A DNA stretch of 26,141 nucleotides from an uncultured Anaerolineales bacterium (GTDB lineage: Bacteria > Chloroflexota > Anaerolineae > B4-G1), in contig CAYPOY010000027.1 in NCBI GenBank assembly GCA_964412395.1, positions 1 to 26,141 on the forward strand, read 5' to 3'. Below, in pieces: positions 6,071-26,117 of this stretch; positions within the stretch are counted from its first letter, which is position 1; each line of letters opens with the position of its first letter. The notes under the pieces are model-generated. The model saw only the letters and a program-made list of their open reading frames with translations. It had not been told where the DNA came from and made no database searches. The translations under genes were made by a program, and so were the position numbers.

Positions 6071-6218
6071 CGCCCCACCTCCTAAATCCAGTACCGTTCG
6101 GTTAAGCGGTTCCATTTCCATCGTAGATGGTGGTAGAATACCACCAGACCGACGGAAAGGAGCCGTGCGATGGGAGTTACCTTAGAGAAGATGGTTGTTG
6201 ACACTGGCAATCTTGGCC

Positions 6219-8582: not shown

Positions 8583-8607
8583 GCCAGTATCTCCATGCCT
8601 CGTTTCG

Positions 8608-10092: not shown

Positions 10093-10167
10093 AAAACGAC
10101 CTGTGGAGAAGGAACAACTTGGGCAAGATCGTGCGCTGTTTTGAAGGCTGAGATCACTGCGCGGTCC

Positions 10168-11217
10168 TTATTTCTTTTCCTCCTCCTTCATACGCCCCAC
10201 CTTGGTTATCCGGCTCCAGGGATCCGCTTCCACCTCATAAGTGGCGTAGATAGGGCGCTCTGTCCGCTCGCCTGTCAGACTTTCCTCCGTCTTGCTGCCC
10301 GCTCTTACGATTGCCTTGAGTCTGATCCCGCCATCGGCGGTTCGTTCCATCTCGTCCCATGTCCAACTTCTTGCCCCCTGTGTCGTCCCAGTGGGTGTCT
10401 TCGCGCCGCCGATCACTCTTGGCGTGATAGCTCTGTGTACAGCACGCCCTGCCTCGCGCTGCACGACCTTTACCAGCAGGTCTTCCCGCAGGAAAATTGG
10501 CTGCGGCAGCGCATCGTTCATTTTCTGCGCATAGGATAGGGCCGACAGAAGCGATGTTGCATAGGTAATAGAAATCATGAAAGTGACGTAGCTACCCATC
10601 AACATGAAAGGGAGAACCAGTCTGATTTTCTTGCGCAGGTCATCCATCTCATCTTGATCGGGTTGTCCTTCCTCGGTAGTTGTGTCATTCGTCGTTTCTT
10701 CCTGCTCCACCTGATCCAGATACGCCTGATCCATGAAGAACCACCGCGCCAATTTCCCCGGCATACTCGACGTGGTCATGCTGTACGCGACCACTACCAT
10801 CAGAAGTAGAGAGAGCCCAGGCAGCACAACTGCCCTCAACCGGATACCACCCAGCAATGCGCGGTGTCCCCGCTTGACTCGTTGCAGCAGTTCCTGCTCC
10901 CGTATGTCGTGGCGTGCGCCGTACGCTGCATGTGCAGCGACGAGGCACAGACATACGGTGACTACCACTGCCAGTAACCGAACGGCAAGGGTGATGCCCT
11001 CCCAGAACTCTATTCCTATCAAACCGCATGCTAGAGCAAAGCCGGTGAGGAGAAAAGGTAAAAAGGTCGGTTTATAGAACGCTAATAGACCCTCTATTCC
11101 CTCCTTCTCCTCATCCTGCGTCGCTCGCCAATCGTTCCAAAGGGTGTTGTCGGAACCACATCGATTGCATTTTTCCCCGGCCTTGTGGTACCCTTTGCAA
11201 ACGATGCATTCAGGCAT
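10168..11217 (-). CDS. Membrane protein with an N-terminal zinc-ribbon (CxxC..CxxC), about 5 TM helices and a C-terminal soluble domain of unknown function
   Basis: 349 aa. 'MPECIVCKGYHKAGEKCNRCGSDN' is a 4-Cys ribbon, followed by long hydrophobic segments. SD 'GGGAGGTAA' upstream of the ATG at 11217. First gene after a 430-bp non-coding gap. Confidence 0.6.
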   Translation of the reverse strand: MPECIVCKGYHKAGEKCNRCGSDNTLWNDWRATQDEEKEGIEGLLAFYKPTFLPFLLTGFALACGLIGIEFWEGITLAVRLLAVVVTVCLCLVAAHAAYGARHDIREQELLQRVKRGHRALLGGIRLRAVVLPGLSLLLMVVVAYSMTTSSMPGKLARWFFMDQAYLDQVEQEETTNDTTTEEGQPDQDEMDDLRKKIRLVLPFMLMGSYVTFMISITYATSLLSALSYAQKMNDALPQPIFLREDLLVKVVQREAGRAVHRAITPRVIGGAKTPTGTTQGARSWTWDEMERTADGGIRLKAIVRAGSKTEESLTGERTERPIYATYEVEADPWSRITKVGRMKEEEKK

Positions 11218-12114: not shown

Positions 12115-12205
12115 AGGTCCCCCACCACGCCATCCCTCGGCTCCACGCACTGAACTTGAAGAGTATCCCAACCTTATCCCGAGTGCAGATGCGCCAAAAT
12201 GGGAT

Positions 12206-12234
12206 TTGCAGCCCCTGACCGCCGATGCTATAAT
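12206..12234 (+). promoter_or_regulatory. Candidate sigma70-type promoter (TTGCAG - 17 bp - TATAAT) for the NTPase-wHTH gene
   Basis: Perfect -10 TATAAT at 12229-12234 and a weak -35 TTGCAG at 12206-12211 with a 17-bp spacer. About 40 nt upstream of the ATG at 12277. Confidence 0.35.
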
Positions 12235-12276
12235 ACCTTTGACCGCCTGTTCTGCAACCTGCCTTTTGGAGCAGCC

Positions 12277-13833
12277 ATGCCTCCGCGAACACCGGATGAA
12301 CGACAACCTAACGCCACATCCTCAGAGCCCTGGTGGAAGCACCATGGTTTCACGGAGAATCCTTTCGCGCTGCGGGAGGCCGGACGGGAAACCCGGTTGT
12401 CAGAGTACTTCGTGCACGGGCCGGATTACGACGCAGTAAAGGGATCTCCCGACGATCCCCAAACGACCATCGTTTTCGCTGCCCGTGGCTGCGGCAAGAG
12501 CGCCTACCGCCGGATGATCCAGACCTCTTGCCGGCCAGACGACGAAGAGAGTACCATCCTGGCCGTTCCTCACACGGAGTTCTCGGATGTTTTGAATGCT
12601 GCAGGCAACCCTGTGGACGTTGCCCTGGAGATGCACATTGAGGCGCTCCTGTGCTCAGCGGCTACTACGTTGCTACAGGAATTCCTACGTCGCCCCACCT
12701 CGTTCGATCACCTGTCGCTTGAAGGCCGTGCGTTCTTCAAGTGGTTCATTCACACCTATGCCCCCCGCACCCTACGTCCTCTCAATTTGATCGAGGAACT
12801 GAGGGCTACGGAGGAGTTCCCGGAGATTGAGGAGCGGACGATGCGGGATGCCACGCGCTCACACGAGTGGTTCCTGGAGTGGCTTGAACGTCCCCCGATG
12901 GACAGGAACACTCAAGCCCGTTTGCTCCTGACACTCTTGCGCACCCAATCTGTCTCTCCACCTGAGAAGACGGCGCGAAGCCCAGTCGCACTGGTACGAG
13001 AGTTCGTGGACCTGGCGCGCCAGAGCGGGCTCCAGGCACTCTATTTTCTCATTGATGGCCTCGATGAACTGAGGATGACCGCCTCTGACCCGGCCGCAGT
13101 CGCTGGCCTGGTGGCCCCGTTGCTGGCGGAACTTCCCCTGATGGAACTCCCGCACACCGCCTTCAAGTTCTTCCTGCCTGCTGAGGCAACGACGGCCCTG
13201 CACATGCGGCGTGATAGCCGGCTGGATCGCTTCCCCATCTACCATCTCACCTGGAGGGACACCGACCTGGAGCAGATGCTCCAGCTGCGGCTGAGGGCCT
13301 TCAACGAGCGCGGAATAGGCGACCTAGGAGCCATCTCGGAGGAGGATATCGCGAGCCGTGTTGACCGGGACCTGGTCGAGATGGCTTATGGCTCTCCCCG
13401 CCGGCTGCTGATGCTGGGAGACGCGCTGTTTGCGGCTCACGCCGCCCGGTCGGGGGCCGGGCTGCTACTGAACCAGCAGGATTGGGAAGAGGCTTGCCGG
13501 AACTTTGAGCGCATCTTCGGCCCGCTGGTGCCGCCGCTGCGCGTGGATCGGGAGATGGGCAAAGTCTTTATCGGCGATGAGGAACTTCCATCTCGCCTTT
13601 CCCCTATGGAATTTGGATTGCTCGAGTTCCTGTACCGGGCTGGGGGGGGGCTGTGCAGCCGTGACAAAATCTCCTATGACCTGCATGAGCGCCCTGAATA
13701 TGGCGTCATCAGCGATGAGGCGTTCGATTCCCTTGTCCTCCGCCTGCGCCGCAAGATCGAGCGCCATCCCAAGCGGCCCGCTTATCTGATCACCGAGCGG
13801 GGAATGGGCTACCGGCTGGAGAACATCGGTTGA
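12277..13833 (+). CDS. P-loop NTPase (Walker B 'LIDGLDE', NACHT/AAA-like) fused to a C-terminal OmpR/PhoB-type winged-helix DNA-binding domain. Putative ATP-dependent transcriptional regulator.
   Basis: Start corrected to the ATG at 12277 ('MPPRTPDE...', GGAG 7 nt upstream). The ORF-track N-terminal extension has no SD. Walker A 'TIVFAARGCGKSAYRRM', Walker B 'ALYFLIDGLDELRM', 'KFFLPAE'. The C-terminal 'LSPMEFGLLEFLYRAGGGLCSRDKISYDLHE...FDSLVLRLRRKIERHPKRPAYLITERGMGYRL' is a classic Trans_reg_C (OmpR-family) wHTH. Homologous NTPase module to the next gene. Confidence 0.8.
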   Translation: MPPRTPDERQPNATSSEPWWKHHGFTENPFALREAGRETRLSEYFVHGPDYDAVKGSPDDPQTTIVFAARGCGKSAYRRMIQTSCRPDDEESTILAVPHTEFSDVLNAAGNPVDVALEMHIEALLCSAATTLLQEFLRRPTSFDHLSLEGRAFFKWFIHTYAPRTLRPLNLIEELRATEEFPEIEERTMRDATRSHEWFLEWLERPPMDRNTQARLLLTLLRTQSVSPPEKTARSPVALVREFVDLARQSGLQALYFLIDGLDELRMTASDPAAVAGLVAPLLAELPLMELPHTAFKFFLPAEATTALHMRRDSRLDRFPIYHLTWRDTDLEQMLQLRLRAFNERGIGDLGAISEEDIASRVDRDLVEMAYGSPRRLLMLGDALFAAHAARSGAGLLLNQQDWEEACRNFERIFGPLVPPLRVDREMGKVFIGDEELPSRLSPMEFGLLEFLYRAGGGLCSRDKISYDLHERPEYGVISDEAFDSLVLRLRRKIERHPKRPAYLITERGMGYRLENIG

Positions 13834-13846
13834 CCGGAGGAGGTGA

Positions 13847-16189
13847 ATGAGAATGCCCGATGCAGCCTCGACCGTGGATGCTTCCCCAAAACCTCCTTAC
13901 CGCCTGTCAGCAGGGCCGGGCATCCTGCTCATCGTCGCGACGTTAGTCGTGTGTGGCATCGGATACCTGTCATGGCAGATCCTCGTCGTCCCGTATCAGC
14001 AGGTCGAAGTCACTGATCCAATGCCACTTGGGCCCGTGGTTGATGGCTGCCAGCCCCGGATCCAGGTCGAGTATCCTGTCTGGCTGAGCTTGGACGATCA
14101 AGGTGTACAGCAGGCCAAGCGTATCGTGTTCACACTGGACTGTGACAGGCCGCTCACGCAGATTGTTCCCGTTACCTTTGAAATCACATCCAATCCATCT
14201 GGGTGGATACGCTTTTTCGACGCACAGGGGGAGGACATATCGCCTAACCTGGTGGCTGAGGTGCCCCCTGGTGGTCAGAGCCGCGTGTCCCTGTATCCGG
14301 AATGTCTGAATCGACCAATAACCCCGACTCGTCTGCTCACCCTTACCCTCACTCTGGCTTCTGCCTCAGTAACCGAACCGGCTGCCTCTTTCACCATTGA
14401 ACTGGAATCTTATGTACAAACGTTTCTGCGCCACGTAGTCAGCAGTGCACTAGGGCCGCTTTCGGCCGGGCAGCTGACCCTGCTGGGCTCGCTGGGTGCC
14501 TTCCTCTGGCACTGTTGGAAGACGTGGAACGAAAAACAGCGGGAATTCAGCAGCCTGTATGAGAAGATGCGCAAAAATAAGGGCGATCTTGCAGCCCTGC
14601 GTGAACTGTACTCCCGCTACCAGGGACTTCAGGGGGTCTTTCCTTTCAACATCATTAATCGGGATCCCCGTATTGAGAATCTGCTCTGCACTGTCGAGGC
14701 CGAGGAACGTGTGCGTTGTGTGGTTGAGAGCCTGGAGAAGAACGATTTTGAGACAGCGCGCGAGTGGGATTGCCGCTTGTTCGCATGTGACCGCACGCAC
14801 TGGGCCATTCCTGTGCTGGGGTGCCTCGTCAATCTGCTGGCTGATGACTCCGCCCCAGACCCCCAAAAGTGCCTGGAGCAACTGCGTAGGGGGTGGGACA
14901 AGGCCGAGCCCAGGTTGCGCTGTCATATGGTCAGGGCGCTCTCTCGCATCCCTCTCGCTGGGGCTCACAAGTTTCTGAGGGAGAAAGAGGGTGATCCAGA
15001 CCTGGGCGTGCGTATCGAGATCGCCTGGGCTTTCTCCAGAGTGAAGCGCCCTCCAGATTTGGATGAGCGCTTGCGGCGGCTTGTAACCGCATCGTTGGAC
15101 GAGTGGCTCCACACGCTGGGGGAGCCTCTGGAGGTTCGCGATCCGTTCGGAGAAGCCATTGCCGAAAGTGCTTACCTCGTCGCCGAACCTTTCATCTGGG
15201 AGCATCCCCTGTACGAGCAGTTGTACATACCGGTAGCAATGGCTGTGCTCGCTCCGGCCGGCGGCGGCAAGACCACGGCTCGTCTGGCGCTCCAGCGCCG
15301 TTTCTGGGGTACTACGGACGCTTTCATGCTGGAATACACTGATTTCCACCTTATGATTGGCCGCCCTTCTCGGATCGCGGCTCGCCATCACGCGGCGGCG
15401 ATCCTCCATTGTGCAGCACAGGCGGTATCGGGCCTTTTGCTGGATGATCCTCGAAGGCTGGCCTCTGTCCATGGTCACCGGGAACGACGGCTGATCCATA
15501 GTCTGCTGGTGAACCACCTTTCTGATCTCCACCTTGCTAGACAGTTGGATGTTACTTTGCAGGAGATCTTACCGTCGCCGGATGAAGAATGGCACAGCCT
15601 GCTGTCCGGGCGGCTGCCGGCCGAGGCTATGCGCGACCTGGTGACCATCGTGCGGGCACTCGGCTTCGGTGAACTATACCTCCTGGTGGACAGGCTGAAC
15701 AATATGCCAGAGACACGGGACCTAGCTGTGGCCGAGGCGCTGTTGTGCCACCTGCTGAACGACCCTGCTTTCTTGGACGTGCCGCACCTGCACCTCAAAC
15801 TGTTCCTGCCGACTGAGTGGGAAGAGTTCGTGGTCGGCTGTGGTGGCCTGCGCAGCGGGCGCGTGTACCTGCGACGATTGGAATGGGACGAAAAATCGCT
15901 CTCGAAGATACTCAGAGAGCGTCTCCAGGTCACCGGCGTGGAGAGCCTGAACCGTTTGGCTGTGGATAACATCTACCCGTCGGATCTGGACGCGGCATTG
16001 GCACGCGAGGCGCATGACTCGCCGCGCCGTCTGGTTGAACTGGGAGAGACCCTTTTGCGCCTGAGAGCGCTGGGCTGGGAAGAGGCTGACCGTGACCCAT
16101 CAAAAGCCCGCCTGCAAACTGAGGATTGGGCTGCGATGCTGGAGTATGGCCTGCGCAGAGCTGCCGAAAGAAAGGTTGCTGCCGGGTAA
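13847..16189 (+). CDS. Membrane-anchored protein with HEAT-like repeats and a C-terminal P-loop NTPase module paralogous to that of 12277..13833
   Basis: 780 aa. N-terminal TM 'GILLIVATLVVCGIGYLSWQILVV'. HEAT/PBS-lyase-like 'RCHMVRALSRIPLAGAHKFLREKEGDPDLGVRIEIAWAFSRVK'. Walker A 'VLAPAGGGKTTARL'. Walker-B region 'ELYLLVDRLNNMPETRDLAVAEALLCHLLNDPAFLDVPHLHLKLFLPTEW' aligns with 'ALYFLIDGLDELRMTASDPAAVAGLVAPLLAELPLMELPHTAFKFFLPAEA' of the upstream gene. Shared C-terminal 'SPRRL(V/L)xLGxxL' motif. SD GGAGGAGGTGA immediately upstream. The stop of the upstream gene is 14 nt before the start, which suggests an operon. Confidence 0.7.
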   Translation: MRMPDAASTVDASPKPPYRLSAGPGILLIVATLVVCGIGYLSWQILVVPYQQVEVTDPMPLGPVVDGCQPRIQVEYPVWLSLDDQGVQQAKRIVFTLDCDRPLTQIVPVTFEITSNPSGWIRFFDAQGEDISPNLVAEVPPGGQSRVSLYPECLNRPITPTRLLTLTLTLASASVTEPAASFTIELESYVQTFLRHVVSSALGPLSAGQLTLLGSLGAFLWHCWKTWNEKQREFSSLYEKMRKNKGDLAALRELYSRYQGLQGVFPFNIINRDPRIENLLCTVEAEERVRCVVESLEKNDFETAREWDCRLFACDRTHWAIPVLGCLVNLLADDSAPDPQKCLEQLRRGWDKAEPRLRCHMVRALSRIPLAGAHKFLREKEGDPDLGVRIEIAWAFSRVKRPPDLDERLRRLVTASLDEWLHTLGEPLEVRDPFGEAIAESAYLVAEPFIWEHPLYEQLYIPVAMAVLAPAGGGKTTARLALQRRFWGTTDAFMLEYTDFHLMIGRPSRIAARHHAAAILHCAAQAVSGLLLDDPRRLASVHGHRERRLIHSLLVNHLSDLHLARQLDVTLQEILPSPDEEWHSLLSGRLPAEAMRDLVTIVRALGFGELYLLVDRLNNMPETRDLAVAEALLCHLLNDPAFLDVPHLHLKLFLPTEWEEFVVGCGGLRSGRVYLRRLEWDEKSLSKILRERLQVTGVESLNRLAVDNIYPSDLDAALAREAHDSPRRLVELGETLLRLRALGWEEADRDPSKARLQTEDWAAMLEYGLRRAAERKVAAG

Positions 16190-16347: not shown

Positions 16348-17823
16348 ATGAACCCGATCATCGTTCCTGGTGTACCGGCACTGGGTTCTTATTCATTTCC
16401 TTATGACTCAGATAAGTTCGCTGCACGTTCCGGTGAGATTGAGTTAGTCTCTAAGAAAGTCTCTACTCGACAGATTGAAGGAGACCACCGTATCACTCGT
16501 CCTCTCGTCGAGTTCTACAGCGTGTTGGGCCAGGGCAAATCCTGGCTGCTCGCTCACCTGCGCGATAAATTCCGCCGCGCCCCCCAGGCGGTTTCCTCTT
16601 CATCCCTATACCGTCCTTCTCTTAGCGCGCTGATAGACCTGCGGACTTTCCCTGATCGGGAACATTCTCTCGCGCTCCTTCAGGCCCTGGCCAGCCAACT
16701 CCGCGAGCAACTTGATGAAGCAACAGCGGGTGAGTTGCCGATTCTCTCATCGGGTGAGCGCGTTGAGGCCACGGCCGAGGCGCTGGGTAAATACCTGCGC
16801 GGCCTGGGTGGATCACGGGTTCCCGTGCTGCTTTTTGATACTGCCGACCAGGCAGATGAGGAGTTCCTGGACTGGATCGAAAACCATCTGATCTACCAGG
16901 CTATCCGCGACGACAGCGTTGTCTTCGTCTTAGCCGGCCGCACACGCCTGCGCTGGAAAAAGTTCGAGGTGCGCCGGCGCGTGGAACCGGGAGAACTTCC
17001 CCCCTTCGACCGGCCCCAAACAGGCGAGCAGATAGAGCGGCTGAGGGGCGAGGAGCCGCCCGACGGGGTCACTACCGCGCTGTGGAATTATTCCTTCGGA
17101 CATCCCCTCACCACGCGGGTGATCTACGACACACTCTGCCGGTTGAGCCCTGATGCTCCGCTGGATGCCGTAGAGACGCGGGAGACGGATGTCGCGCAGG
17201 AAGTGTATGGCCTGATCGAAAATCATTTTTTGAGCGTCGTGGCACAGTCGGAGTTGCGAGAACTGATATGGGATACCTGCGTGTTGCGCAAGTTCAACGT
17301 CGCGCACCTGCGCACATTCGCCGGCGATGAAGGTGCCACGCGTTCGGAGGCTTCTTACCTCAATGTCATCCGCCACCTGGTCGCCAGTACGCTGGTGCGC
17401 TGGAGTTCCGAGGATGGCGGATACGTGCTCGATCCGGTAGTGCGTCAGATTTTGGCGCGCAATCTGCAGATGCGGGAGCCAGGGCAATACCTGGGGCAGC
17501 ACATGACGGCAGCCGCGATGTATGAGAGATGGATACAGGAATACCCACGCAACGCGGGGGACTTCCTGATCGAGTGGATGGTTCACCAGAGGGAAGTCTG
17601 GCAAGTGCAAGGGATGCCCGACGACGAGATTGCCTTACAGTTGGCCCAGGCGTTCCAGGAGCGGCTTGATCAACTCACAAAAGAGCCACGGGTACAGTGG
17701 GAGTTACCGGACGTCGCCCGCACGCTGGACGAACGGTTGCTGAGGCGAGAGGATGCGGGCCTGGTGATTGCCCTCAGCGGGTTGCAGAAGGCTGCCCGGC
17801 CGTTTGTTGCCCAGTATGTCTGA
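16348..17823 (+). CDS. Minimal STAND (NB-ARC/NLR-like) P-loop NTPase lacking both an effector domain and C-terminal repeats
   Basis: 491 aa. Walker A 'FYSVLGQGKSWLL'. Walker B 'VLLFDTADQADEEFLDW'. Sensor-1-like 'VFVLAGRTRL'. GxP-like 'NYSFGHPLTTRVIYDTL'. These motifs are collinear with the three downstream STAND proteins. SD 'TAGGAG' upstream of the ATG. Confidence 0.75.
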   Translation: MNPIIVPGVPALGSYSFPYDSDKFAARSGEIELVSKKVSTRQIEGDHRITRPLVEFYSVLGQGKSWLLAHLRDKFRRAPQAVSSSSLYRPSLSALIDLRTFPDREHSLALLQALASQLREQLDEATAGELPILSSGERVEATAEALGKYLRGLGGSRVPVLLFDTADQADEEFLDWIENHLIYQAIRDDSVVFVLAGRTRLRWKKFEVRRRVEPGELPPFDRPQTGEQIERLRGEEPPDGVTTALWNYSFGHPLTTRVIYDTLCRLSPDAPLDAVETRETDVAQEVYGLIENHFLSVVAQSELRELIWDTCVLRKFNVAHLRTFAGDEGATRSEASYLNVIRHLVASTLVRWSSEDGGYVLDPVVRQILARNLQMREPGQYLGQHMTAAAMYERWIQEYPRNAGDFLIEWMVHQREVWQVQGMPDDEIALQLAQAFQERLDQLTKEPRVQWELPDVARTLDERLLRREDAGLVIALSGLQKAARPFVAQYV

Positions 17824-17859
17824 TGCTGGAGAACCTGCCGCATCTGCTCTACCAGCCGA

Positions 17860-17890
17860 CCCATCGCCTCCGGCGGTGGGTTTTTGTTGT
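17860..17890 (+). terminator. Rho-independent terminator: 9-bp stem (cccaucgcc / ggcgguggg, one G-U pair), short loop, then uuuuuguugu
   Basis: Read directly, 37 nt after the stop of 16348..17823. The GC-rich stem is followed by a T5 tract. Confidence 0.65.
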
Positions 17891-17917
17891 AACAAGTGGC
17901 GGAAGTGCTAATTCTGC

Positions 17918-17947
17918 TTGACATATGCCCCTCTTTTGTCGTATAAT
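17918..17947 (+). promoter_or_regulatory. Perfect-consensus sigma70 promoter TTGACA - 18 bp - TATAAT driving the STAND-TPR / SIR2-STAND operon
   Basis: ttgaca at 17918-17923 and tataat at 17942-17947. An AT-rich context in a GC-rich genome. Located between the terminator and the corrected GTG start at 18043, giving a 5' UTR of about 90 nt. Confidence 0.6.
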
Positions 17948-18042
17948 AATGATATGCTGTAACACCTTGCCAGGCGTCGTCAGACTTGACAGAGAGCATA
18001 GTATTCGACGTCAGGCCGCTACTTACTCTCCAGGAGGCTACA

Positions 18043-20937
18043 GTGAGCAAAACCTCGGCCATTGTTCCAAAGACGCGCCGTCTCGTCGGCCGCGAAGCCG
18101 AAGAGCACATCCTGCGCCAGGCCATCGAGGCTGATGGCCTGCGCGTCGTTTATATTACCGGGGAGGCCGGCCTGGGCAAGACCCGCCTGCTGGAATACCT
18201 CCCCGCCATCATTGATACCTGCCGCAACCACGACGAGTGCCTTTGGTGCGGGAACATTGACCTCTACGACCCGGAGAAACACAGCAACAGCGGCATGGAG
18301 GCAGCCATCGCCGGTGCGCTGGATCCCGAGCGGGAGGCATTTGCCACCTACTGGGATGGACGTAAGGAGTTCGAGCGCCAGCGGCGCGCTGGAGCCGATC
18401 TGTACACTCTGGAAAAACTGCGTAAGGGCCTGATCGAGAAATTCGTGGAGGACCTTAACGACGTCGGCCGGGAGAAGCGCGTCGTCGTCGCCCTGGATAC
18501 CGTCGAACTCATCCAGTACGAGAGTGACATCGTACAACAGGTGTGCGGCATTGAGCCACAGGGCATCGAGGTGCGCGAGTGGCTGACGCTGAACCTGCCT
18601 CGTTTAGAGAACGCCGTCTTCGTCCTGGCCGGCCGGCCCAGGCCTGAACTGGCGGAAGACCTGCAAAAGACATTCGGCGAACAACTGATTGAGATTCAAC
18701 TGCGGCCGTGGCCTGAGGAGGAGCAGACCCTGGCCTACTTCGCTGCCGTGGAGGAGGAGGAACTCCCTGCCGCCCGACGGAGTGCGCTGAGTGAGATGTC
18801 TGAGGACTGGCGGCGGATGGTGCATCACTACACTGGCGGACACCCGCTCAAGGTGACACTTACCATCGAATTGCTGCTGATGAATCTGCCGCTGCCACCG
18901 GTCTTCAGCGAACCCCCGCCGGCCGATATCCAAGAGCGAATGAAGAAGGAGTTGGTCGAGGGACTGATGGAAGCGGGAGATGAGCCAGCGACCGCGCTGC
19001 GCTACATGGCGGTGGCCCGCAAGGGGATGGATGCTGCGCTGTTGCACCACCTGTTGGGCGACGAGTGGCCAGAGCAGCGCTGCCAGCGCGTGCTGCAGGA
19101 CTTGCGGCCCTGGTCCTTTGTCAAAACACGACCAGGCACTGACCTTTTGTTCCTGCACGACGAGATGTACGATCTACTGGAGCGATACGCCCCGGTGCCC
19201 GACCGTTACCAGGCGGCCACGCGCATTGCCGATGCCTACGAGGAACACATCAGCGAACTACTGGCGGATGACACCAAAAGGCAGCGGCAGGTACTGCAGG
19301 TGGAGCAACTGTACTACAAATTGCTGGCAAACCGAACAGCCGGGTACGCCGGCTACACCCGGCAGGCGGCCGAAGCCATCTTCACTCACGAGGCCGGCTT
19401 CGACATGTCATTGCGTGACGAGATGTTGCGCTTCTTCAAAGACCACGGTTCGCCGGTCATCTGGCAGCGCATCAACCGCGACAGCGCCGCGCTGTGGGTC
19501 GAACGATATAACGCTATGGGCCTCCACGAGCGAGCCTACCGGGTGGCCGCCGACGTCCTGGCCAGCGACCACTCTGACTTCCGGGGCGGGCGTGATGACC
19601 CGTTATTCATGGCCGCGCTACTCTCGGGACAGGGCACCGCGCTGGCGATACAAGGCAGGAGACTGGATGAGGCGGCACAGTTGTTGCAGTACGCCATTGC
19701 CAGACTGGAGCCTGTCTCCATTCCCGGCGAAGAACGGAACCGGGCGCGCATCCTGGGAAGTGCATACAACACGCTGGGATACGTCTGTTTCGTGCAGAAG
19801 AGGTACGACGCGGCCATCGGGTCGTACGCGAGGGCACTGCCCCACCTACGGCAGGTGGAACTTGGGGCTCACCTGGCCGACGCCGAAAAGAATCTGGCCC
19901 GCACCTACAGCCTGATGGGCCGGCATCGCGAAGCGGTGGTACTGTGTGATGACAGCATTGAACTGTTCCGTCAAGCCAACAATCGCTACGGTGAGGCCTA
20001 CGGCCTGAATGTGCTGGGGCAGATCCGCACCGACATGGAGCACTTCTACCGGGGCTACATCCACTCCCGCGCCGCGCTGCGCATCTTTCGCCAGTTGGAG
20101 CACGGGCGCGGCATCGGTCTGGCGCTCCACGCCCTGGGCGAGGCGACCCGCAAGCGGGCCACCTTCGAGGAGTACACGCTCGGCGAGGCGGAGGAACTGT
20201 TCCACGAAGCGGAAAAGTACCTGGAGGAAGTACCGGAATATCTGATCGAACCGCTGCGGCTGGCCTACGCCCGCAACGAACTGGGGTGTGTCTACCGGGA
20301 CTGGGCCATCGTTCGCCAGCGACACAACAGGGACTTTGCTGAACTCGTAGAGCAGGCCAGGAAGCATCTCCTGGAGGCCGCAGACGTTGCCGGAGACACG
20401 CCGGAGTGGCACACTCACGAGGCCGACTGTTACGAGGACCTGGCCCAGGTAGAGTTCATTCGTGGCCCGGAGGGGTATGCGGAGGCGCTGAAGTGGCTGG
20501 ATAAGGCGGAGGGCAGTATTGAGCCACAATATCGAATCACGGCACGGGGGCTTCCCAGGATTGAGGAGCCGGTGCAGGGCTACTGGGTTATGTTGGGCAA
20601 GATCGAACTGCTGCGCGGGCACGTCGCTTTCGCCACAGGTCAGGAGAAAGAGAATGTAAATCAGAATCCGGATCCTGACTACCAGGAAGCGATCCGGCAC
20701 TATGTCCTTGCCACTTCTTACTTTGAAGCCTTCTCACCGAAAGCGCACGAGTTGAATACGACGCTGGACAGTATGTACGACCGGCTGCGTAAACTCTTGG
20801 CCCACCAGTTGGCCTACTTGCGCAAACACGCCGAGGGCGTTGCCGGGGACTACAATCTCGACGCAACTCGTTTCCTGGACATGTTCGATAGTACCCTGGG
20901 GGCCATCTCGTTGCTCAGCCGAGAGGAGACATTATGA
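18043..20937 (+). CDS. STAND NTPase (NB-ARC-like) with C-terminal TPR repeats and no N-terminal effector domain
   Basis: Start corrected to the GTG at 18043, with a perfect SD 'AGGAGG' 5-6 nt upstream. The ORF-track TTG at 17986 has none, and the N-terminus then aligns with paralog 23589. Walker A 'VVYITGEAGLGKTRLLEYLP'. Walker B 'VVVALDTVELIQYESD'. 'VFVLAGRPRPELAEDL'. GxP 'HYTGGHPLKVTLTIELL'. C-terminal TPR-type repeats ('AYNTLGYVCFVQKRYDAAIGSYARAL', 'AEKNLARTYSLMGRHREAVVLCDDSIELF', 'AYGLNVLGQIRTDMEHFYRGYIHSRAALRIF'). Confidence 0.85.
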   Translation: MSKTSAIVPKTRRLVGREAEEHILRQAIEADGLRVVYITGEAGLGKTRLLEYLPAIIDTCRNHDECLWCGNIDLYDPEKHSNSGMEAAIAGALDPEREAFATYWDGRKEFERQRRAGADLYTLEKLRKGLIEKFVEDLNDVGREKRVVVALDTVELIQYESDIVQQVCGIEPQGIEVREWLTLNLPRLENAVFVLAGRPRPELAEDLQKTFGEQLIEIQLRPWPEEEQTLAYFAAVEEEELPAARRSALSEMSEDWRRMVHHYTGGHPLKVTLTIELLLMNLPLPPVFSEPPPADIQERMKKELVEGLMEAGDEPATALRYMAVARKGMDAALLHHLLGDEWPEQRCQRVLQDLRPWSFVKTRPGTDLLFLHDEMYDLLERYAPVPDRYQAATRIADAYEEHISELLADDTKRQRQVLQVEQLYYKLLANRTAGYAGYTRQAAEAIFTHEAGFDMSLRDEMLRFFKDHGSPVIWQRINRDSAALWVERYNAMGLHERAYRVAADVLASDHSDFRGGRDDPLFMAALLSGQGTALAIQGRRLDEAAQLLQYAIARLEPVSIPGEERNRARILGSAYNTLGYVCFVQKRYDAAIGSYARALPHLRQVELGAHLADAEKNLARTYSLMGRHREAVVLCDDSIELFRQANNRYGEAYGLNVLGQIRTDMEHFYRGYIHSRAALRIFRQLEHGRGIGLALHALGEATRKRATFEEYTLGEAEELFHEAEKYLEEVPEYLIEPLRLAYARNELGCVYRDWAIVRQRHNRDFAELVEQARKHLLEAADVAGDTPEWHTHEADCYEDLAQVEFIRGPEGYAEALKWLDKAEGSIEPQYRITARGLPRIEEPVQGYWVMLGKIELLRGHVAFATGQEKENVNQNPDPDYQEAIRHYVLATSYFEAFSPKAHELNTTLDSMYDRLRKLLAHQLAYLRKHAEGVAGDYNLDATRFLDMFDSTLGAISLLSREETL

Positions 20938-21122
20938 AACCTGCTAGCAGTGGCAAGATTGAGACCAGTGCCTCCTATTCATCTCAAGCGCTCTCGCTGT
21001 TCCAAGTGGAGGGTATGCCAGCGTCCCAACCCCCTGTCGTTGAACTTATGGCGGAGGGCGATGACTGCAAATATCCGGCAAGACCGGAGCGCACGCTGGA
21101 TACGCAATGTGGCGACTGTTGA
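20934..21122 (+). CDS. Hypothetical 62-aa protein, translationally coupled (ATGA overlap) to the upstream STAND-TPR gene
   Basis: The ATG at 20934 overlaps the TGA stop at 20935-20937. SD 'GAGAGGAGA' 4 nt upstream. It ends 19 nt before the GTG start of the SIR2-STAND gene. It contains 3 Cys, has no recognisable domain, and no homolog could be checked. Confidence 0.35.
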   Translation: MKPASSGKIETSASYSSQALSLFQVEGMPASQPPVVELMAEGDDCKYPARPERTLDTQCGDC

Positions 21123-21141
21123 ATAGTCGCGGGGAGCAGGT

Positions 21142-23592
21142 GTGGATCTCCTCACTATCATCGGCATTTCAGCAGCCATCGTCGGAATCATTGCCGGCGT
21201 TGTACAGGTGCTGGACTATCTGCAAAAGCGACGAGCGACCGCCCAACAGCGGAGAGCCACGCCCATAACCTCAGCGGCACCCCTGGAGACCACCTCCGAC
21301 CAGACCGTGCTCTCCACTGTTCAACCCGAGGGACCGCCCATGGGCAATGCTGTTTCCACCGAAGCAACTGTCTCCGTTGTCCCAACCCGGCATCCTCTCG
21401 CTATCCCTGCTGCCGTTGAAGATCCCGTGCCGGATGAGCCAGGGCAAGATATCGAATCTATCCTGCAACGCATCGAGCAACTGGACCAGTATACCAACGA
21501 AGTCCTGGCCCAGATTGCACACGATGTACGGGAGGGCAAATGCGTCTTCCTGATTGGGGCAGGGTGCTCGGTTCAGGCCGGGATGCCCAGCGGCCGTCAG
21601 TTGACCCGCTTGCTCAAGGAACATGCCCGCTGGTCGTGTGAGAGCAGCCGATTGCCTGATGTAGCACAAACCTACGTGGATCAGAGGCGCCGTGGCGACC
21701 TGGAGGCGATCATCTACCGTGCACTTAAGGATAGAGAAAGGGCCAGGGGCTCCCCCACTATCAGGCCGACGTTTGCTCATCAAGCCTTAGCGCGCATTGT
21801 CTCTCTGTCACCTCACATGATGGCCATTCTGACCACCAACTGGGATAGGCTCCTGGAGCAGGCACTGGATGAGGAGCCCGTGGCCTACACGACGGTGGCG
21901 TCGGACCAGGCTGTGGCGAGCGCCGACTCGAAGCGCCTCAGAGTGATCAAACTGCACGGCGATGTCGAATCACGAGAATATACCATCGCCCGTGAGGACT
22001 TTGCCCATTATGCCGCTAACCACCCACGCCTGGTGGAACTCTGGAAGGAGTGTCTGCGTAACTGTACCCTGGTGGTCGTTGGATATGGGTTGGAGGACCG
22101 GAGTTTCCTGGATGTCTACCACATGGTATTGGATACACTGGGAGGCAAAGACGCCGCCAGACCCTTTTACGTCGTCTTGCCCTACACCCACCGCGAAAAG
22201 AGGCGGCACTGGCGGGAGAGGATGGGCGTCAGTGAGTTCATTGACCTGGACGCGGACACTTTTACTGTGGCCCTCTACTGCCAGATCAACGTCTTCGCCA
22301 ACCGGCAAGGTGAACTTGACCTGGTTTATCGCTTGCTGCAGGCGCTGGATGTGGATGGCCGGTCCAAAAGGATCGTCGAATTCTACGGCGTCCCCGGCAT
22401 CGGCAAGACCAGCCTGTTAGAGCGTGTTCGGGACAAACCCGATACCATACCTGCAACGCTCATTCGCCTGGGCGAGCAGTGTTTTCAAGGCCAGGTTGCT
22501 CGTCAGGCTATCCTGGCCCAGATGTCCACCGATCTGGCCATTGGCGAGACTGGAGACGAGGAAATCTTTGTGCGTCGTCTGTCCCCCTATCAGGCGATCC
22601 TCCTGTTTGATGCGACCGATCAGGCTGACGAGCAGACCTTGAGATGGCTTGGCGACTTGCTTTGCCGACTTCCCAGGGCATTCGCGATCTTTGCTGGCCG
22701 CCGGCCGTTATTGCATACCTGCTGGCGTGGGTCAGCAGCGCTGACGAGAGAACTCGCTCGCCCGCGCAGGCTTGGTCCCTTTGCTGTGGCCGATGCCAGG
22801 CAACAGATCGAACGCGAGTTATTCTGGGATCGTGCTCTGGCCGAGTACCTGTACGACCTCACGGGGGGGCATCCGGGCATCATCCGCGAGGCCCTCCAGT
22901 GGTTGAAGGACCAGCGCACCTCCCCCGGCTGGTCAGCGACGCTCCGTGACGAGCGGCAGATGGGACTGCTGCTGGAGGAATGGATAGACCGGTGCATCCT
23001 GGACAGTGTGGAACCGGATCTCGGGTCTATCATCAAACAAGTGGCGGCCCTACGGTCCTTCTCACCCGGCGACCTGCGTCTAATCTTGCCCGATGCACAG
23101 GGACAGCCAGTGGGGTACTTTGACAGGCTGATCAAGGAGCGGCTGGTACCCAGCGGGCTCGTTGACTGGCAGGGGCTGAAAGTGTACCGGCTGGATCCAA
23201 CTGTGCAACGGCTAGTCCTGCATAGCGTCAGGCTCAAGTCTCCCCAACAGTTTGCAGAAGTGTGCCGACGGATTCGACGACTGTATGACACGTATGTCGA
23301 AAGTCACCCTGAGCGTTGCGGTCAGTTTGTGGTGGAGAAACTATATCACCTGGCCTCTGAGGGCTACGCCCTGGAGTGGTCAAATGATGACCTGAGGGCC
23401 GCTCTGCTTCGTGCGCTTGAAGCCGACCTGGCCCGCGCAGATGAGGCGAGTGTGGCCGAGGACGTGCGAGAAGTGCTTGAGAACGACGTTGAGTTGCAGG
23501 AACTTATGCCGGAGGTCTACCCTGACTTGCTCCGGTCAGCCAGGCAAATGTCTGAACAACTTGTATCAGGCCAATTGGAGGTAGGCCCGTGA
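21142..23592 (+). CDS. Membrane-anchored SIR2-STAND fusion: N-terminal TM helix + Pro/Thr/Ser-rich linker + SIR2-like (DHS-like NAD-binding, SIR2_2-type) domain + STAND NTPase + helical domain, with no C-terminal repeat sensor
   Basis: GTG start with 'GGGAG' 5 nt upstream. TM 'LLTIIGISAAIVGIIAGVVQVL'. SIR2_2 motifs 'CVFLIGAGCSVQAGMPSGRQLTRLL', 'ILTTNWDRLLEQAL' (catalytic Asn), 'RVIKLHGDVESREY' (catalytic His), 'CTLVVVGYGLEDRSFLDV'. STAND Walker A 'VEFYGVPGIGKTSLLERV', Walker B 'ILLFDATDQADEQTLRWL', 'FAIFAGRRPL', GxP 'DLTGGHPGIIREALQWL'. Confidence 0.85.
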   Translation: MDLLTIIGISAAIVGIIAGVVQVLDYLQKRRATAQQRRATPITSAAPLETTSDQTVLSTVQPEGPPMGNAVSTEATVSVVPTRHPLAIPAAVEDPVPDEPGQDIESILQRIEQLDQYTNEVLAQIAHDVREGKCVFLIGAGCSVQAGMPSGRQLTRLLKEHARWSCESSRLPDVAQTYVDQRRRGDLEAIIYRALKDRERARGSPTIRPTFAHQALARIVSLSPHMMAILTTNWDRLLEQALDEEPVAYTTVASDQAVASADSKRLRVIKLHGDVESREYTIAREDFAHYAANHPRLVELWKECLRNCTLVVVGYGLEDRSFLDVYHMVLDTLGGKDAARPFYVVLPYTHREKRRHWRERMGVSEFIDLDADTFTVALYCQINVFANRQGELDLVYRLLQALDVDGRSKRIVEFYGVPGIGKTSLLERVRDKPDTIPATLIRLGEQCFQGQVARQAILAQMSTDLAIGETGDEEIFVRRLSPYQAILLFDATDQADEQTLRWLGDLLCRLPRAFAIFAGRRPLLHTCWRGSAALTRELARPRRLGPFAVADARQQIERELFWDRALAEYLYDLTGGHPGIIREALQWLKDQRTSPGWSATLRDERQMGLLLEEWIDRCILDSVEPDLGSIIKQVAALRSFSPGDLRLILPDAQGQPVGYFDRLIKERLVPSGLVDWQGLKVYRLDPTVQRLVLHSVRLKSPQQFAEVCRRIRRLYDTYVESHPERCGQFVVEKLYHLASEGYALEWSNDDLRAALLRALEADLARADEASVAEDVREVLENDVELQELMPEVYPDLLRSARQMSEQLVSGQLEVGP

Positions 23593-26117
23593 TCGAACTT
23601 GCTGTCTTCCCGGGTGCCTTACGTACCAGCAGGCTGGTCGGTCGTGCGGAGGAACTGACCGCGATCCAGTCTGCAATTGAGGCCGAGGGCACGCTGCGCG
23701 TGCTGCATTTCGTCGGTGATGGGGGCATTGGCAAGACGCGCCTGCTGGAGGAGATTCCCAACCTGATCGCGAACTCGGGCAAACCCGATACCTGCCTATG
23801 GGGCGGGATCATAGATCTCTACGACACGGCTACCCATAGCCATGCTGGCATAGAGCGAGTGATTCTGGAAGCACTTGACCCAGCCGGGGAGAAATTTGAG
23901 GGCTGCCGGACCGCAAGAAAAGAGCACGCACGTTTGCGCCGCAGCGGTGCGGAAGCCGAGCGCCTAAACCGCCTTCGTATCCAGTCGTCGGCCCTGTTCG
24001 TCGAAGAGTTCAACCGACTTTCAAATCAAAGACGTGTGGTGCTGGCCTTCGACACTGCGGTGTCCATGCAGTACGAAAGCGACTTGGTGCAGGAAATCTG
24101 CGGGTTGGGCTTCGGTGATCTGGAGGTCCGGTCGTGGCTGCTGGATCAACTGCCGCGTTTACAGAACGCCATCTTCGTTATTGCCAGCCGGCCCCAACCA
24201 CGCCTGGTGCGAGACGTGAAAGAACGTTTTGGACGAGAACCGTACCTGCTTGGACCGTTCAGCGAGGATGAGACAATTGACTACTTTGACGCTCTGGCCG
24301 AACTGACGGAGGTCGGCAGCGTTGACCTGGAAACTCGGCGTGTGATCCATCGCTATTCGGAGGGCTGGCCGCTTCTGTTATCTCTCATCATTGAGGTGAT
24401 GGTCAGCGCGGCCCCCTGGCTTGAAGAGTTCAACGCCCCTCTGCACGAGTTGGAGGCCAAGAGCGAGGAGGAACTGGCATCAGTGCGCAGAATCTTCGAG
24501 CAACGGCTGGTTGACAACATCCAGAGGCTGAGCAGTGACGTGGCAATTGCTCTCCCTTTCTTGGCGTGGGCACGGCGAGGGATGAATGCAGAATTGCTGG
24601 CGCGACTGACAGGATGGTCTGCGAAAGAATGTCGGCACGTGTTGGCCGAACTGAAGCGCTTCTCTTTCGTCAAGACTCCGGCTGGGACTGAACGGGTCTT
24701 CCTGCACGATGCTGTATATGACTTGATGGACCGCCATGTGCTACAATATCTGGTCTCGGACAGAGAGCGGGTCTGCGAGGAGACCGTCCGATACTATGAC
24801 GAGCATATTGAGAAAAGAGCGAAGAGAGCAAAAACAGGTGCGGAAGTGGCCGCGCTTATGGCAGAGCGTCTCTATTATCGGCTGCTGGTTGATCCCAGGA
24901 GCGGTTACGCTGAATATAGCCGCCTGGCAGACGAAGCCATCTTCCGGAACGAAGTTGGTCTGGACATGGCACTCCGCGATGAGGTATTGCGTTTCTTCAA
25001 TGTCGAAAGGAATCCCATATTTGCCGTGCAGTCCCAGCGTTACTATCGCCTGACCCAACAGCGGCTTGACCCCGACAGCGCCATTCGCTGGGTGAGACGC
25101 TACGTGGCGCGGGGGCAGTATGCCCGGGCGGTGGATGTGGCGCGCAGGATACGTTCTGTTGACCATCCCCATTTCCGCGCTGCCGGGCCTTTCTTCGAGC
25201 CTTCCCTTGCCATTGATGAAGGTACGGCTCTGGTGCGGCTCGGTCGGGACGTATCTGATGCTATAGAGATGCTTAAGGGTGCTGTCGCGCGTCTTGAAGA
25301 GATTAGCCCAACTGACGAATACAAGATTTGGAGCCGTGACCAGTGTCTTGGCAACGCCTGCAATACCCTGGGGTATGCCTACAAGATGCAGAAGAAATAT
25401 GACGCTGCTGTCAGGTGGTATCAGAGGGCATTACCCTACCTTCGCCGGGCCAGACTTGAGGCCCACTACGTCGATGCAGGAAAGAACCTTAGCCGGGTGT
25501 ACGGGCTACTGGGAAGATTTACAGAAGCGGTAACGCTGTGCGAAGACAGTCTGCGGATTTTCAGCGAGACAGGCAACCGGTATGGCGAGGCATATAGCCT
25601 GAACGTGTTGGGACAAATTCGCACAGATATGGGCCACCCCTATCGAGCCTATCTCCGCTCACAGGACGCCCTGCGGCTCTTTCGAAGCCTGGACAATAAG
25701 CGTGGGATTGGTCTGGCATGTACTGCCCTGGGAGAAGCGGCGCGCAAGTGGGCAACCTTCGAGTATCATTCGCTCGAGGAAGCGGAGCAATTGTTCCGTG
25801 AAGCCGAGGGATACTTGAAGGAGGCATTGACCATCTTCCCAGAGCAGGTCGTTGAGCCGCTCAGAGCAATGGCGGCACGCAACGAGTTGGGGTGCGTGTA
25901 TCGTGACTGGGCAGCGGTCTACCGGCGACACGGGCTGGCCCCCGCGTCCCTGGAACAACGGGCAAGGAAACAACTGAATCGCTGCCTCGCGGAAGCCAGT
26001 CCAGAGTGGCGGATGGAACTGGCAGACAACTGCGAAGACCTGGCCGAGGTTGAATCTGCCCGTGGACCAGAAGGGTACGACGAAGCACGGGTCTCCTTGA
26101 ATTGTTGGGAAACTTGA
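23589..26117 (+). CDS. STAND NTPase (NB-ARC-like) with C-terminal TPR repeats, paralog of 18043..20937
   Basis: The GTG start overlaps the upstream stop (GTGA, 23589-23592), and SD 'GGAGGT' is 7 nt upstream. Walker A 'VLHFVGDGGIGKTRLLEEIP'. Walker B 'VVLAFDTAVSMQYESD'. 'IFVIASRPQPRLVRDV'. GxP 'RYSEGWPLLLSLIIEV'. TPRs 'ACNTLGYAYKMQKKYDAAVRWYQRAL', 'AGKNLSRVYGLLGRFTEAVTLCEDSLRIF', 'AYSLNVLGQIRTDMGHPYRAYLRSQDALRLF'. Confidence 0.85.
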   Translation: MIELAVFPGALRTSRLVGRAEELTAIQSAIEAEGTLRVLHFVGDGGIGKTRLLEEIPNLIANSGKPDTCLWGGIIDLYDTATHSHAGIERVILEALDPAGEKFEGCRTARKEHARLRRSGAEAERLNRLRIQSSALFVEEFNRLSNQRRVVLAFDTAVSMQYESDLVQEICGLGFGDLEVRSWLLDQLPRLQNAIFVIASRPQPRLVRDVKERFGREPYLLGPFSEDETIDYFDALAELTEVGSVDLETRRVIHRYSEGWPLLLSLIIEVMVSAAPWLEEFNAPLHELEAKSEEELASVRRIFEQRLVDNIQRLSSDVAIALPFLAWARRGMNAELLARLTGWSAKECRHVLAELKRFSFVKTPAGTERVFLHDAVYDLMDRHVLQYLVSDRERVCEETVRYYDEHIEKRAKRAKTGAEVAALMAERLYYRLLVDPRSGYAEYSRLADEAIFRNEVGLDMALRDEVLRFFNVERNPIFAVQSQRYYRLTQQRLDPDSAIRWVRRYVARGQYARAVDVARRIRSVDHPHFRAAGPFFEPSLAIDEGTALVRLGRDVSDAIEMLKGAVARLEEISPTDEYKIWSRDQCLGNACNTLGYAYKMQKKYDAAVRWYQRALPYLRRARLEAHYVDAGKNLSRVYGLLGRFTEAVTLCEDSLRIFSETGNRYGEAYSLNVLGQIRTDMGHPYRAYLRSQDALRLFRSLDNKRGIGLACTALGEAARKWATFEYHSLEEAEQLFREAEGYLKEALTIFPEQVVEPLRAMAARNELGCVYRDWAAVYRRHGLAPASLEQRARKQLNRCLAEASPEWRMELADNCEDLAEVESARGPEGYDEARVSLNCWET

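Follow-up and report, generated by a model that had tools for sequence, protein, structure and literature searches.

Short and long STAND NTPases of Chloroflexota form cognate gene pairs that keep effector and TPR domains on separate chains: a candidate NLR-like conflict system

Here we describe a group of genes for signal transduction ATPases with numerous domains (STAND) on a contig of an uncultured Anaerolineales bacterium (CAYPOY010000027.1, assembly GCA_964412395.1). The window analysed is the whole 26,141-bp contig, and the same genes are present in the sister assembly GCA_034430995.1. Four STAND open reading frames (ORFs), called A, B, C and D, lie on the plus strand at the positions where the original prediction had placed them. 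A (16348..17823) encodes a short STAND-type NTPase with a nucleotide-binding domain (NBD), a helical domain (HD), a winged-helix domain (WHD) and a C-terminal helical bundle, and is paired with B. B (18043..20937) encodes a long STAND NTPase with an MHD-like LHD motif and a C-terminal region of ~550 aa made of tetratricopeptide repeats (TPRs) and other helices, and is the predicted sensor. It is followed by s (20934..21122), a 62-aa peptide with the pattern 'LSLF...VEL...DxQC(x)xC' that belongs to a small Cys-peptide family, then by C (21142..23592), in which a transmembrane (TM) anchor and a SIR2 domain precede a short STAND NTPase, and by D (23589..26117), a long STAND-TPR paralogue of B. 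C is the predicted NADase-bearing partner of D.

A terminator-like hairpin (17858..17882, plus strand; an 11-bp stem and then a T-run) stands after A, and the sigma-70-type promoter for B-s-C-D (17918..17947, plus strand) reads TTGACA-18-TATAAT and agrees with the consensus at 12/12 positions, as had been claimed. In the closest syntenic relative, a locus designated L006 whose B is 76% identical to ours, the hairpin is kept with compensatory changes and both promoter hexamers are invariant. The proposed translational coupling of B-s-C-D holds for B and s, which overlap in ATGA (s being preceded by a GAGGAG Shine-Dalgarno sequence), and for C and D, which overlap in GTGA, but not for s and C, which are 19 nt apart with GGGGAG as the Shine-Dalgarno sequence in the gap. 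Good Shine-Dalgarno sequences are found for all genes from G0a, the first of two ATPase genes upstream of A, to D. The start of B is most likely GTG 18043 rather than TTG 17986, because AGGAGG lies 7 nt upstream, the length of the identical database protein P0013 is 964 aa, and an ATG stands at the same position in the L006 orthologue. At the other end of the group, D is almost certainly cut by the contig end, and its stop codon, 24 nt before that end, is probably an assembly-end artefact. Similarity to the full-length orthologue in another related locus (L001, 79% nucleotide identity, order ...B-s-C-D-s') stops at 26086, 55 nt before the contig end, and the orthologue is ~130 aa longer and followed by a second small peptide. 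A natural end of D at 842 aa was ruled out by this orthologue together with the contig end.

A collinear NTPase, helical and winged-helix module is common to all four proteins, which fall into two distinct families, a short one (A, C) and a long one (B, D). B and D are 46% identical, and A shares 26% identity with the C-terminal 430 aa of C (E 1e-19). BLASTP across the families returns a P-loop match only; comparison of the A/C profile with the B/D profile by hhalign gives 98.8% at E 4.6e-17 over 360 collinear columns, in which A aa 16-416 correspond to B aa 6-428. Columns invariant in both families include the Arg of 'hhGR', the Walker A G-x-G-K, the Walker B Asp (D-T-x-[DE]), the Arg of 'AGR' and G-(H/R)-P. 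The earlier claim of four co-directional STAND NTPases with collinear motifs is thus borne out. When the proteins are held against the definition of Leipe, Koonin & Aravind (2004), G-x-G-K-[ST] and hhhhD of Walker A and B are invariant in both families, and hhGRExE appears, with its Arg invariant, as LVGREAE (B), LVGRAEE (D), FAARSGE (A) and FANRQGE (C). The GxP of the helical domain (ARC1) reads G-G/H/W-H/R-P, the invariant residues being G251-H252 (A family) and G266-P268 (B family), and the succession of NBD, helical and winged-helix domains is that of Apaf-1, CED-4, MalT and the nucleotide-binding leucine-rich repeat receptors (NLRs). An LHD triad equivalent to the MHD motif is invariant in B/D (L371 H372 D373); in A/C, 'xLD' or 'xMD' is aligned at this position and the His is absent.

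Family profiles recognise this module poorly. The AAA_16 threshold is passed by D alone (33.5 bits against a gathering threshold of 32.6), while the NB-ARC, NACHT and nSTAND5 matches of A, B and C, and the AAA_16 match of B, stay below the Pfam thresholds. Of the profiles that the original prediction had named for a check, SIR2_2 was found in C, the TPRs in B and D, and AAA_16 above threshold in D. Among relatives there are weak links to Pfam, to nSTAND6 for P0143 (28.2 bits against 27.7) and to NB-ARC for P0197 (2e-4), and profile searches against the sequences of the Protein Data Bank gave only TPR matches and a weak match to the STAND-TPR protein PH0952 (6mfv). An AlphaFold 2 model of A (mean predicted local distance difference test score 86.5) consists of NBD, helical domain, winged helix and helical bundle, and its best Foldseek matches are MalT (top), CED-4, Avs3 and a wheat resistosome, with Cdc6/ORC close behind.

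The accessory domains are partitioned as the original prediction described: by Pfam, TPR_12/TPR_10 occur in B and D only and SIR2_2 in C only, and A has no extra domain, neither effector nor repeats. In B the repeats are detected as TPR_12 (1.1e-9), in D as TPR_12 and TPR_10 besides AAA_16; neither protein has a DNA-binding domain. C has one strong N-terminal TM helix (aa 3-21; 21148-21204), a disordered linker of ~60 aa, the SIR2 region (~21493-22236) and the NTPase module (22294-23589), all on the plus strand, and its chain ends at aa 816, past the winged helix and a short helical bundle. The SIR2_2 match (PF13289, 3.4e-22) covers aa 228-363. The NAD-binding GAG motif is retained, as are N233 (TTNWD) and H272 (LHG), which align to the catalytic N133 and H171 of DSR2, so that C has the fold, the GAG motif and the catalytic Asn and His by which defence SIR2 NADases are defined. 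Its structural matches are ThsA, KomC and DSR2, with Avs5 also among them; models of defence SIR2 domains match at 1e-19 to 1e-21, as against E values of at least 1e-4 for CobB-type deacylases, and PADLOC finds in C only SIR2-domain matches (PDC-S65, ThsA, Dsr2, pAgo-SIR2).

A genome scan with the B/D family profile yielded 51 Chloroflexota loci, and their ORFs were searched with the window proteins and an iterated hidden Markov model of the short type. A short gene lies directly upstream of the long gene in 32 of the 35 cases with enough upstream DNA, often with a 4-nt overlap. Two of the three exceptions are loci with a second long gene in tandem, and the other is an in-frame fusion of short and long (L023, 8828-13099, 1423 aa). 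Such fusions also exist in P0052 and P0224; they are 1423-1574 aa in length and retain the TPRs as well as both NTPase modules. In neighbour-joining trees the branching of the short modules mirrors that of the long ones, clade for clade, and the SIR2-linked pairs form a clade of their own. B has ~100 full-length homologues, every taxonomically labelled one of which is from Chloroflexota; all labelled relatives are Chloroflexota metagenome-assembled genomes or Candidatus genomes, and as far as taxonomy is available the system is confined to this phylum. As a separate observation, in L022 and L040 two tandem long STAND-TPR genes stand behind a single short gene (1:2), with a gene for a radical S-adenosylmethionine (rSAM) enzyme next in L040 and the contig ending inside the second long gene in L022, an arrangement that leaves some room for sensor multiplicity.

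The effector carried by the short protein varies. An exhaustive profile search of the short type brought up 5391 cluster representatives at a cut-off of E<=1e-3, of which 1716 remain at 1e-10 and 400 at 1e-30, far beyond the 12 matches for C and 15 for A that a word-indexed homologue search had returned. Among the 150 short-type representatives listed, most are stand-alone proteins of ~480-500 aa, and those with N-terminal extensions carry SIR2, TIR+SIR2, caspase+SIR2, trypsin+SIR2, TIR+EAD7 or TIR; the extended proteins end right after the NTPase module and have no C-terminal repeats. A triad of SIR2-short, TPR-long and rSAM genes was found in at least nine other loci (L004, L031, L042, L058, L059, L064, L071, L076, L080). 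A metagenome scan seeded on the SIR2 motif 'TTNWD' mostly returned unrelated SIR2_2 proteins, and 7 of its 80 loci were informative. In L003 (5697-7346), a protein with caspase (Peptidase_C14) and SIR2_2 domains and no NTPase is encoded by a gene that overlaps the downstream SIR2-short STAND gene, which suggests that extra effectors can be stacked. Taken together, adjacency, congruent trees, natural fusions and modular effectors bear out the claim that effector and sensor reside on different polypeptides.

These comparative data show A-B and C-D as 1:1 cognate pairs; they give no sign of several TPR sensors feeding one SIR2 executor, as the original prediction had it. C-D is the extra pair; its short partner has acquired a TM anchor and a SIR2 domain whose catalytic residues are intact. 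The pair is absent from L006, whose order is G0a-G0b-A-B-peptide-rSAM, and present in L001, and we therefore regard it as inserted. C-D may have arisen either by duplication and SIR2 gain or by recombination. The trees, asked whether the pair came from the clade of the SIR2 triads, were ambiguous, as D goes with B and C is isolated.

The unit to which A-B belongs is larger than the four genes originally delimited. Unsupervised clustering of all neighbouring ORFs gave a stereotyped order of two to three ATPases like G0a/G0b, short STAND, long STAND-TPR, sometimes a GCN5-related N-acetyltransferase (GNAT), and an rSAM/SPASM protein. A-B thus sits in a common cassette, G0a-G0b-A-B-(Cys-peptide)-(GNAT)-rSAM/SPASM, and the widespread unit begins at 12199. 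G0a (12199..13833, plus strand), which opens the cassette, is an Sll1717/DS-41-like P-loop ATPase with a C-terminal winged helix-turn-helix (wHTH) of OmpR/PhoB type (NF053860 DS41_1_antiphage 4e-58, 197.5 bits against a cut-off of 370; NF047389 Sll1717 9e-18; Pfam Trans_reg_C 6.5e-13). G0b (13847..16189, plus strand) is a paralogous Sll1717/DS-41-like ATPase, placed in family 2 by the gene maps; it has a TM helix near the N-terminus (aa 20-38) and a HEAT-like middle region, and its DS41_1 match (NF053860) reaches 1.2e-21 at aa 593-737, with 77.2 bits against the same cut-off of 370. DS-41 ('AAA2', DefensePredictor, PMC13092281) is an experimentally validated single-gene ATPase defence protein, of which G0a and G0b are distant relatives, both below the family cut-off; in distinction from it, G0a adds the wHTH and G0b the TM helix and the HEAT-like region, and both stand within a multi-gene cassette. 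Genes of this kind are found upstream of 21 of the 29 long genes with at least 4.5 kb of upstream DNA, and in none of the SIR2-type loci whose upstream DNA is long enough to tell (L003, L031, L071, L080).

Downstream of the long gene, the cassette includes an enzyme and its likely peptide. rSAM/SPASM genes occur in 29 loci and lie within 1.5 kb downstream of the long gene in 24 of 33 cases. The protein resembles SPASM proteins of the peptide-maturase type (PqqE, mycofactocin, sactipeptide, ranthipeptide) and matches no curated family; its best 25 NCBIfam matches are AhbD, PqqE, GeoRSP and mycofactocin types, all far below cut-off. Since the contig ends inside D, no rSAM gene is visible in the window, and judging from the related loci we expect one just past its end. 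Peptides of 58-67 aa with an 'LSLF/LDFF' motif and a C-terminal QC(x)xC lie between the long gene and the rSAM gene in several loci. Homologues of s occur in L001 (two copies), L002, L005, L006 and L057, and similar peptides in L016, L018 and L034; a search for precursor peptides in the rSAM-bearing loci gave convincing candidates in about half only. The original prediction had recognised s as a real ORF but had missed both its Cys-peptide family and the conserved rSAM/SPASM gene. Because rSAM/SPASM and Cys-peptide belong to the system, any model of it must include peptide modification. Two further observations concern this region. Long-form rSAM/SPASM proteins (L025 13769-15232, L028 13708-15165, L039 13610-15082) bear one or two N-terminal 'DCAC' motifs resembling the C-termini of the small peptides (QCGDC, QCTCN, QCDCATS), which suggests that the rSAM start may be a fused precursor or pseudo-substrate. 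In 7 loci (e.g. L023 13053-13544, L026 13124-13603, L039 13050-13613) the long gene and the rSAM gene are separated by a gene for a GNAT-like acetyltransferase of 160-190 aa, assigned by motif reading.

With moderate confidence, we read A-B and C-D as two cognate pairs of a multi-gene NLR-like conflict system serving immunity or programmed death. The TPR region of the long protein would act as the ligand sensor. Ligand binding would drive the NTP-dependent co-oligomerisation of the long protein with its short paralogue through their homologous NBD-HD-WHD modules, and the co-assembly would cluster the N-terminal effector of the short partner. That the two proteins depend on each other, physically and functionally, has indirect support from the 32/35 adjacency, the co-phylogeny and the natural fusions. 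For C, clustering would lead to NAD+ hydrolysis at the membrane, so that the infected or stressed cell would stop growing or die. Where the short partner lacks an effector, as A does, the output would probably come from the co-conserved Sll1717/DS-41-like ATPases, because their distribution is complementary to that of SIR2. The rSAM/SPASM enzyme would cross-link or otherwise modify the small Cys-peptide, which may then act on the TPR sensor as endogenous ligand or regulator, or be a secondary toxin or signal.

Several points weigh against this interpretation. Most short-type proteins have no effector. The nucleotide switch of A/C may differ from that of canonical STANDs, given the missing MHD histidine. 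A conserved terminator and promoter stand between A and B, so that stoichiometric co-translation of the two is not enforced. In the neighbour-joining trees D groups with B and with the B of L006 instead of with the long proteins paired with other SIR2 proteins, and the branch of C is long and isolated. The rSAM gene that the interpretation calls upon is not visible in the window. Hetero-oligomerisation, the sensor role of the TPRs and the NADase activity are steps that we infer, and the set of rSAM, peptide and GNAT genes, together with the wHTH of G0a, would equally fit a regulated peptide natural-product locus.

A more specific version of the paired reading proposes an obligate hetero-oligomeric NLR pair, in which the TPR sensor is gated by a self-made, rSAM-modified Cys-peptide acting as endogenous ligand, guardee or intercellular alarm, and which fires SIR2, TIR or caspase. 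We consider this bolder version rather unlikely. If it were true, the filamentous Chloroflexota would possess a peptide-controlled NLR-pair cell-death circuit, and both the sensor/executor NLR pair and a RiPP-like NLR ligand, that is, one resembling a ribosomally synthesised and post-translationally modified peptide, would be new for prokaryotic immunity.

Equally doubtful, in our judgement, is that the locus serves regulated RiPP-type biosynthesis or signalling, with rSAM/SPASM and GNAT maturing the Cys-peptide, the STAND-TPR proteins acting as MalT/AfsR-like regulators or peptide receptors, G0a providing a DNA-binding output and SIR2 being an accessory or regulatory deacylase. The co-occurrence of rSAM/SPASM with small Cys-peptides and GNAT, the likeness of the rSAM protein to PqqE and to the mycofactocin, sactipeptide and ranthipeptide maturases, the Trans_reg_C domain of G0a and the top rank of MalT among the structural matches of A all accord with such a role. 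So do the NCBIfam matches of the B/D TPR region to HaaT (a RiPP TPR protein) and AfsR; however, these reach 28-40 bits against cut-offs above 1100 and reflect generic TPRs only. B and D lack a DNA-binding domain, and the gene maps show neither a conserved transporter nor a conserved leader peptidase. Death and immune effectors (SIR2, TIR, caspase, trypsin, EAD7) on short proteins would be needless for a biosynthetic regulator, and the SIR2 domain of C falls in the SIR2_2/ThsA/DSR2/KomC NADase group, not with the CobB-type deacylases.

It is also conceivable, and to us quite improbable, that B and D are alternative TPR sensors of differing specificity that recruit the single executor C, A being a helper that is spare or serves as decoy. 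One promoter stands before the tightly packed B, s, C and D, while A is cut off by the terminator; D is a fairly close paralogue of B (46% identity, sister clades), so that B might still fit C, and L022 and L040 offer precedents of one short gene with two long ones. However, the terminator and promoter between A and B are the same in L006, which lacks C-D, and hence are not a sign of B-C coupling. Elsewhere there is one short gene per long gene, with congruent trees, and orthologues of B adjoin A-type partners without any SIR2 protein.

Very unlikely is the view that each gene works independently, as a single-protein Avs-like or an unrelated ATPase defence gene, and that they were gathered in a defence island without any hetero-complex. 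The contig is indeed packed with NTPase-type conflict genes (two KAP-FGE genes, G0a and G0b), the norm known so far is the single-chain Avs protein, and DS-41 likewise consists of one gene. This view leaves the 32/35 adjacency, the frequent 4-nt overlaps, the co-phylogeny and the natural fusions without a reason, and A, lacking both sensor and effector, and B and D, lacking an effector, are not plausible alone. The fission of a single Avs5-type SIR2-STAND-TPR gene into C and D, to which the GTGA overlap as a possible frameshift site and the SIR2-STAND chain of Avs5, one of the structural matches, might point, is highly improbable and was rejected, as C and D each have a full NTPase, helical and winged-helix module, the split is kept in L001, L002, L057 and at least nine distant triads, no PADLOC Avs model matches either protein, and none of the homologues found joins SIR2 and TPRs on one chain behind a single NTPase, the pattern that would indicate fission.

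PADLOC gave no system-level assignment, and no model in PADLOC, NCBIfam or Pfam captures the system. Our literature searches yielded no account of it, nor of a STAND pair with SIR2 and SPASM or of sensor/helper NLR pairs in bacteria. The earlier statement that it had not been described nevertheless goes too far: paired STANDs, and STAND-TPR proteins with rSAM and peptide, had already been predicted by Kaur et al.; the concept of trans-encoded effector and sensor is anticipated, and this family is uncatalogued. Kaur, Iyer, Burroughs & Aravind (2021, PMC8195603) predicted a two-gene paired-STAND operon (nSTAND2), which likewise has adjacent STAND genes, a proposed hetero-multimer and variable effector domains. 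In nSTAND2, however, one partner has degenerate NTP-binding motifs, whereas here P-loop and Walker B are invariant in both, and no TPR partner or rSAM module is described there. The present proteins also belong to a different STAND clade, with weak Pfam links of the short type to nSTAND6 and of the long type to nSTAND_NTPase5, and no nSTAND2 match was found in Pfam at E up to 0.1 for the window proteins and up to 0.001 for their relatives.

Kaur et al. (2020, PMC7159879) described AP-ATPase-TPR proteins coupled to modules of an FxSxx-COOH peptide and rSAM/SPASM, and proposed the peptide to be a toxin or signal amplifying a conflict system. As here, a small, fast-diverging peptide and an rSAM/SPASM enzyme are coupled to a STAND protein with C-terminal TPRs. 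That system is actinobacterial and linked to vWA-MoxR ternary systems and a zincin peptidase, and its peptide ends in FxSxx; the peptides described here end in QC(x)xC, and the STAND component is a short/long pair behind Sll1717-like ATPases. No peptidase or vWA-MoxR gene is conserved in our gene maps, and FxsB is absent from the best 25 NCBIfam matches of the rSAM protein.

Avs5 (AVAST type 5; 9nc9, 9jap) is a SIR2-STAND protein that has its own C-terminal sensor on one polypeptide. In contrast, C ends after the winged helix and bundle, and the repeats belong to another STAND protein that has an NTPase of its own; C is also TM-anchored, and its locus family includes rSAM/SPASM and peptide genes. 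None of the Avs/AVAST models of PADLOC match A, B, C or D, and A, B and D give nothing beyond generic TPRs. ThsA of Thoeris, DSR2 and KomC have SLOG, an alpha-solenoid or KomB as regulatory parts, instead of the STAND NTPase and separate STAND-TPR protein seen here. The likeness to the paired and helper NLRs of plants and animals (NRC helpers, NAIP/NLRC4) is an analogy without orthology; hetero-oligomerisation is a prediction for the present proteins, and those receptors use coiled-coil, TIR or CARD effectors and leucine-rich repeats in place of SIR2 and TPRs.

In most bacterial antiviral STANDs characterised so far (Avs, bNACHT), sensor, switch and effector are joined in a single chain. To our knowledge, a division of labour between sensor NLR and executor NLR has so far been a hallmark of plant and animal immunity, and we know of almost no characterised immunity in the Chloroflexota. 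The family described here is sizeable and uncatalogued, has the split as its conserved state and a modular effector slot, and has an rSAM peptide-modification arm attached. Should the two partners prove interdependent, they would offer a simple prokaryotic model for the mutual activation of paired NLRs and possibly the first NLR-type receptor coupled to a peptide that is made on the ribosome and then modified by an enzyme, and would add systems for Chloroflexota to the defence-finder catalogues.

Upstream of the cassette, on the minus strand, lie two multi-TM SPFH/Band-7 proteins (7227-8582 and 8608-10092; Band_7 matches and TM helices) and a Zn-ribbon protein with four TM helices (10168-11217), all three divergent from G0a. 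L006 has the same SPFH-SPFH-ZnTM order, divergent, ahead of its cassette. In the SIR2-type triads L031, L064, L071, L076 and L080 the rSAM gene has a gene for an SPFH protein behind it, and L064 also has a homologue of the Zn-ribbon/TM protein. We tentatively link this trio (7227..11217) to the system, of which it may be the membrane arm.

The neighbourhood is rich in other conflict-type genes. Two paralogues of a KAP-family P-loop NTPase with a C-terminal FGE-sulfatase domain (FGS, C-type-lectin-like) occupy 903-3368 and 3485-6121 on the minus strand. Kaur et al. tied the KAP-FGE architecture to conflict systems and to diversification by diversity-generating retroelements; neither a reverse transcriptase nor a template repeat is seen in the window, and such an origin of its direct repeats was rejected, the repeats being paralogous gene pairs. 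Between the KAP-FGE and SPFH genes, also on the minus strand (6219-7202), lies a gene for a 327-aa protein that combines an unassigned C-terminal half of ~170 aa with N-terminal TPRs of the TPR_12/MalT-like kind.

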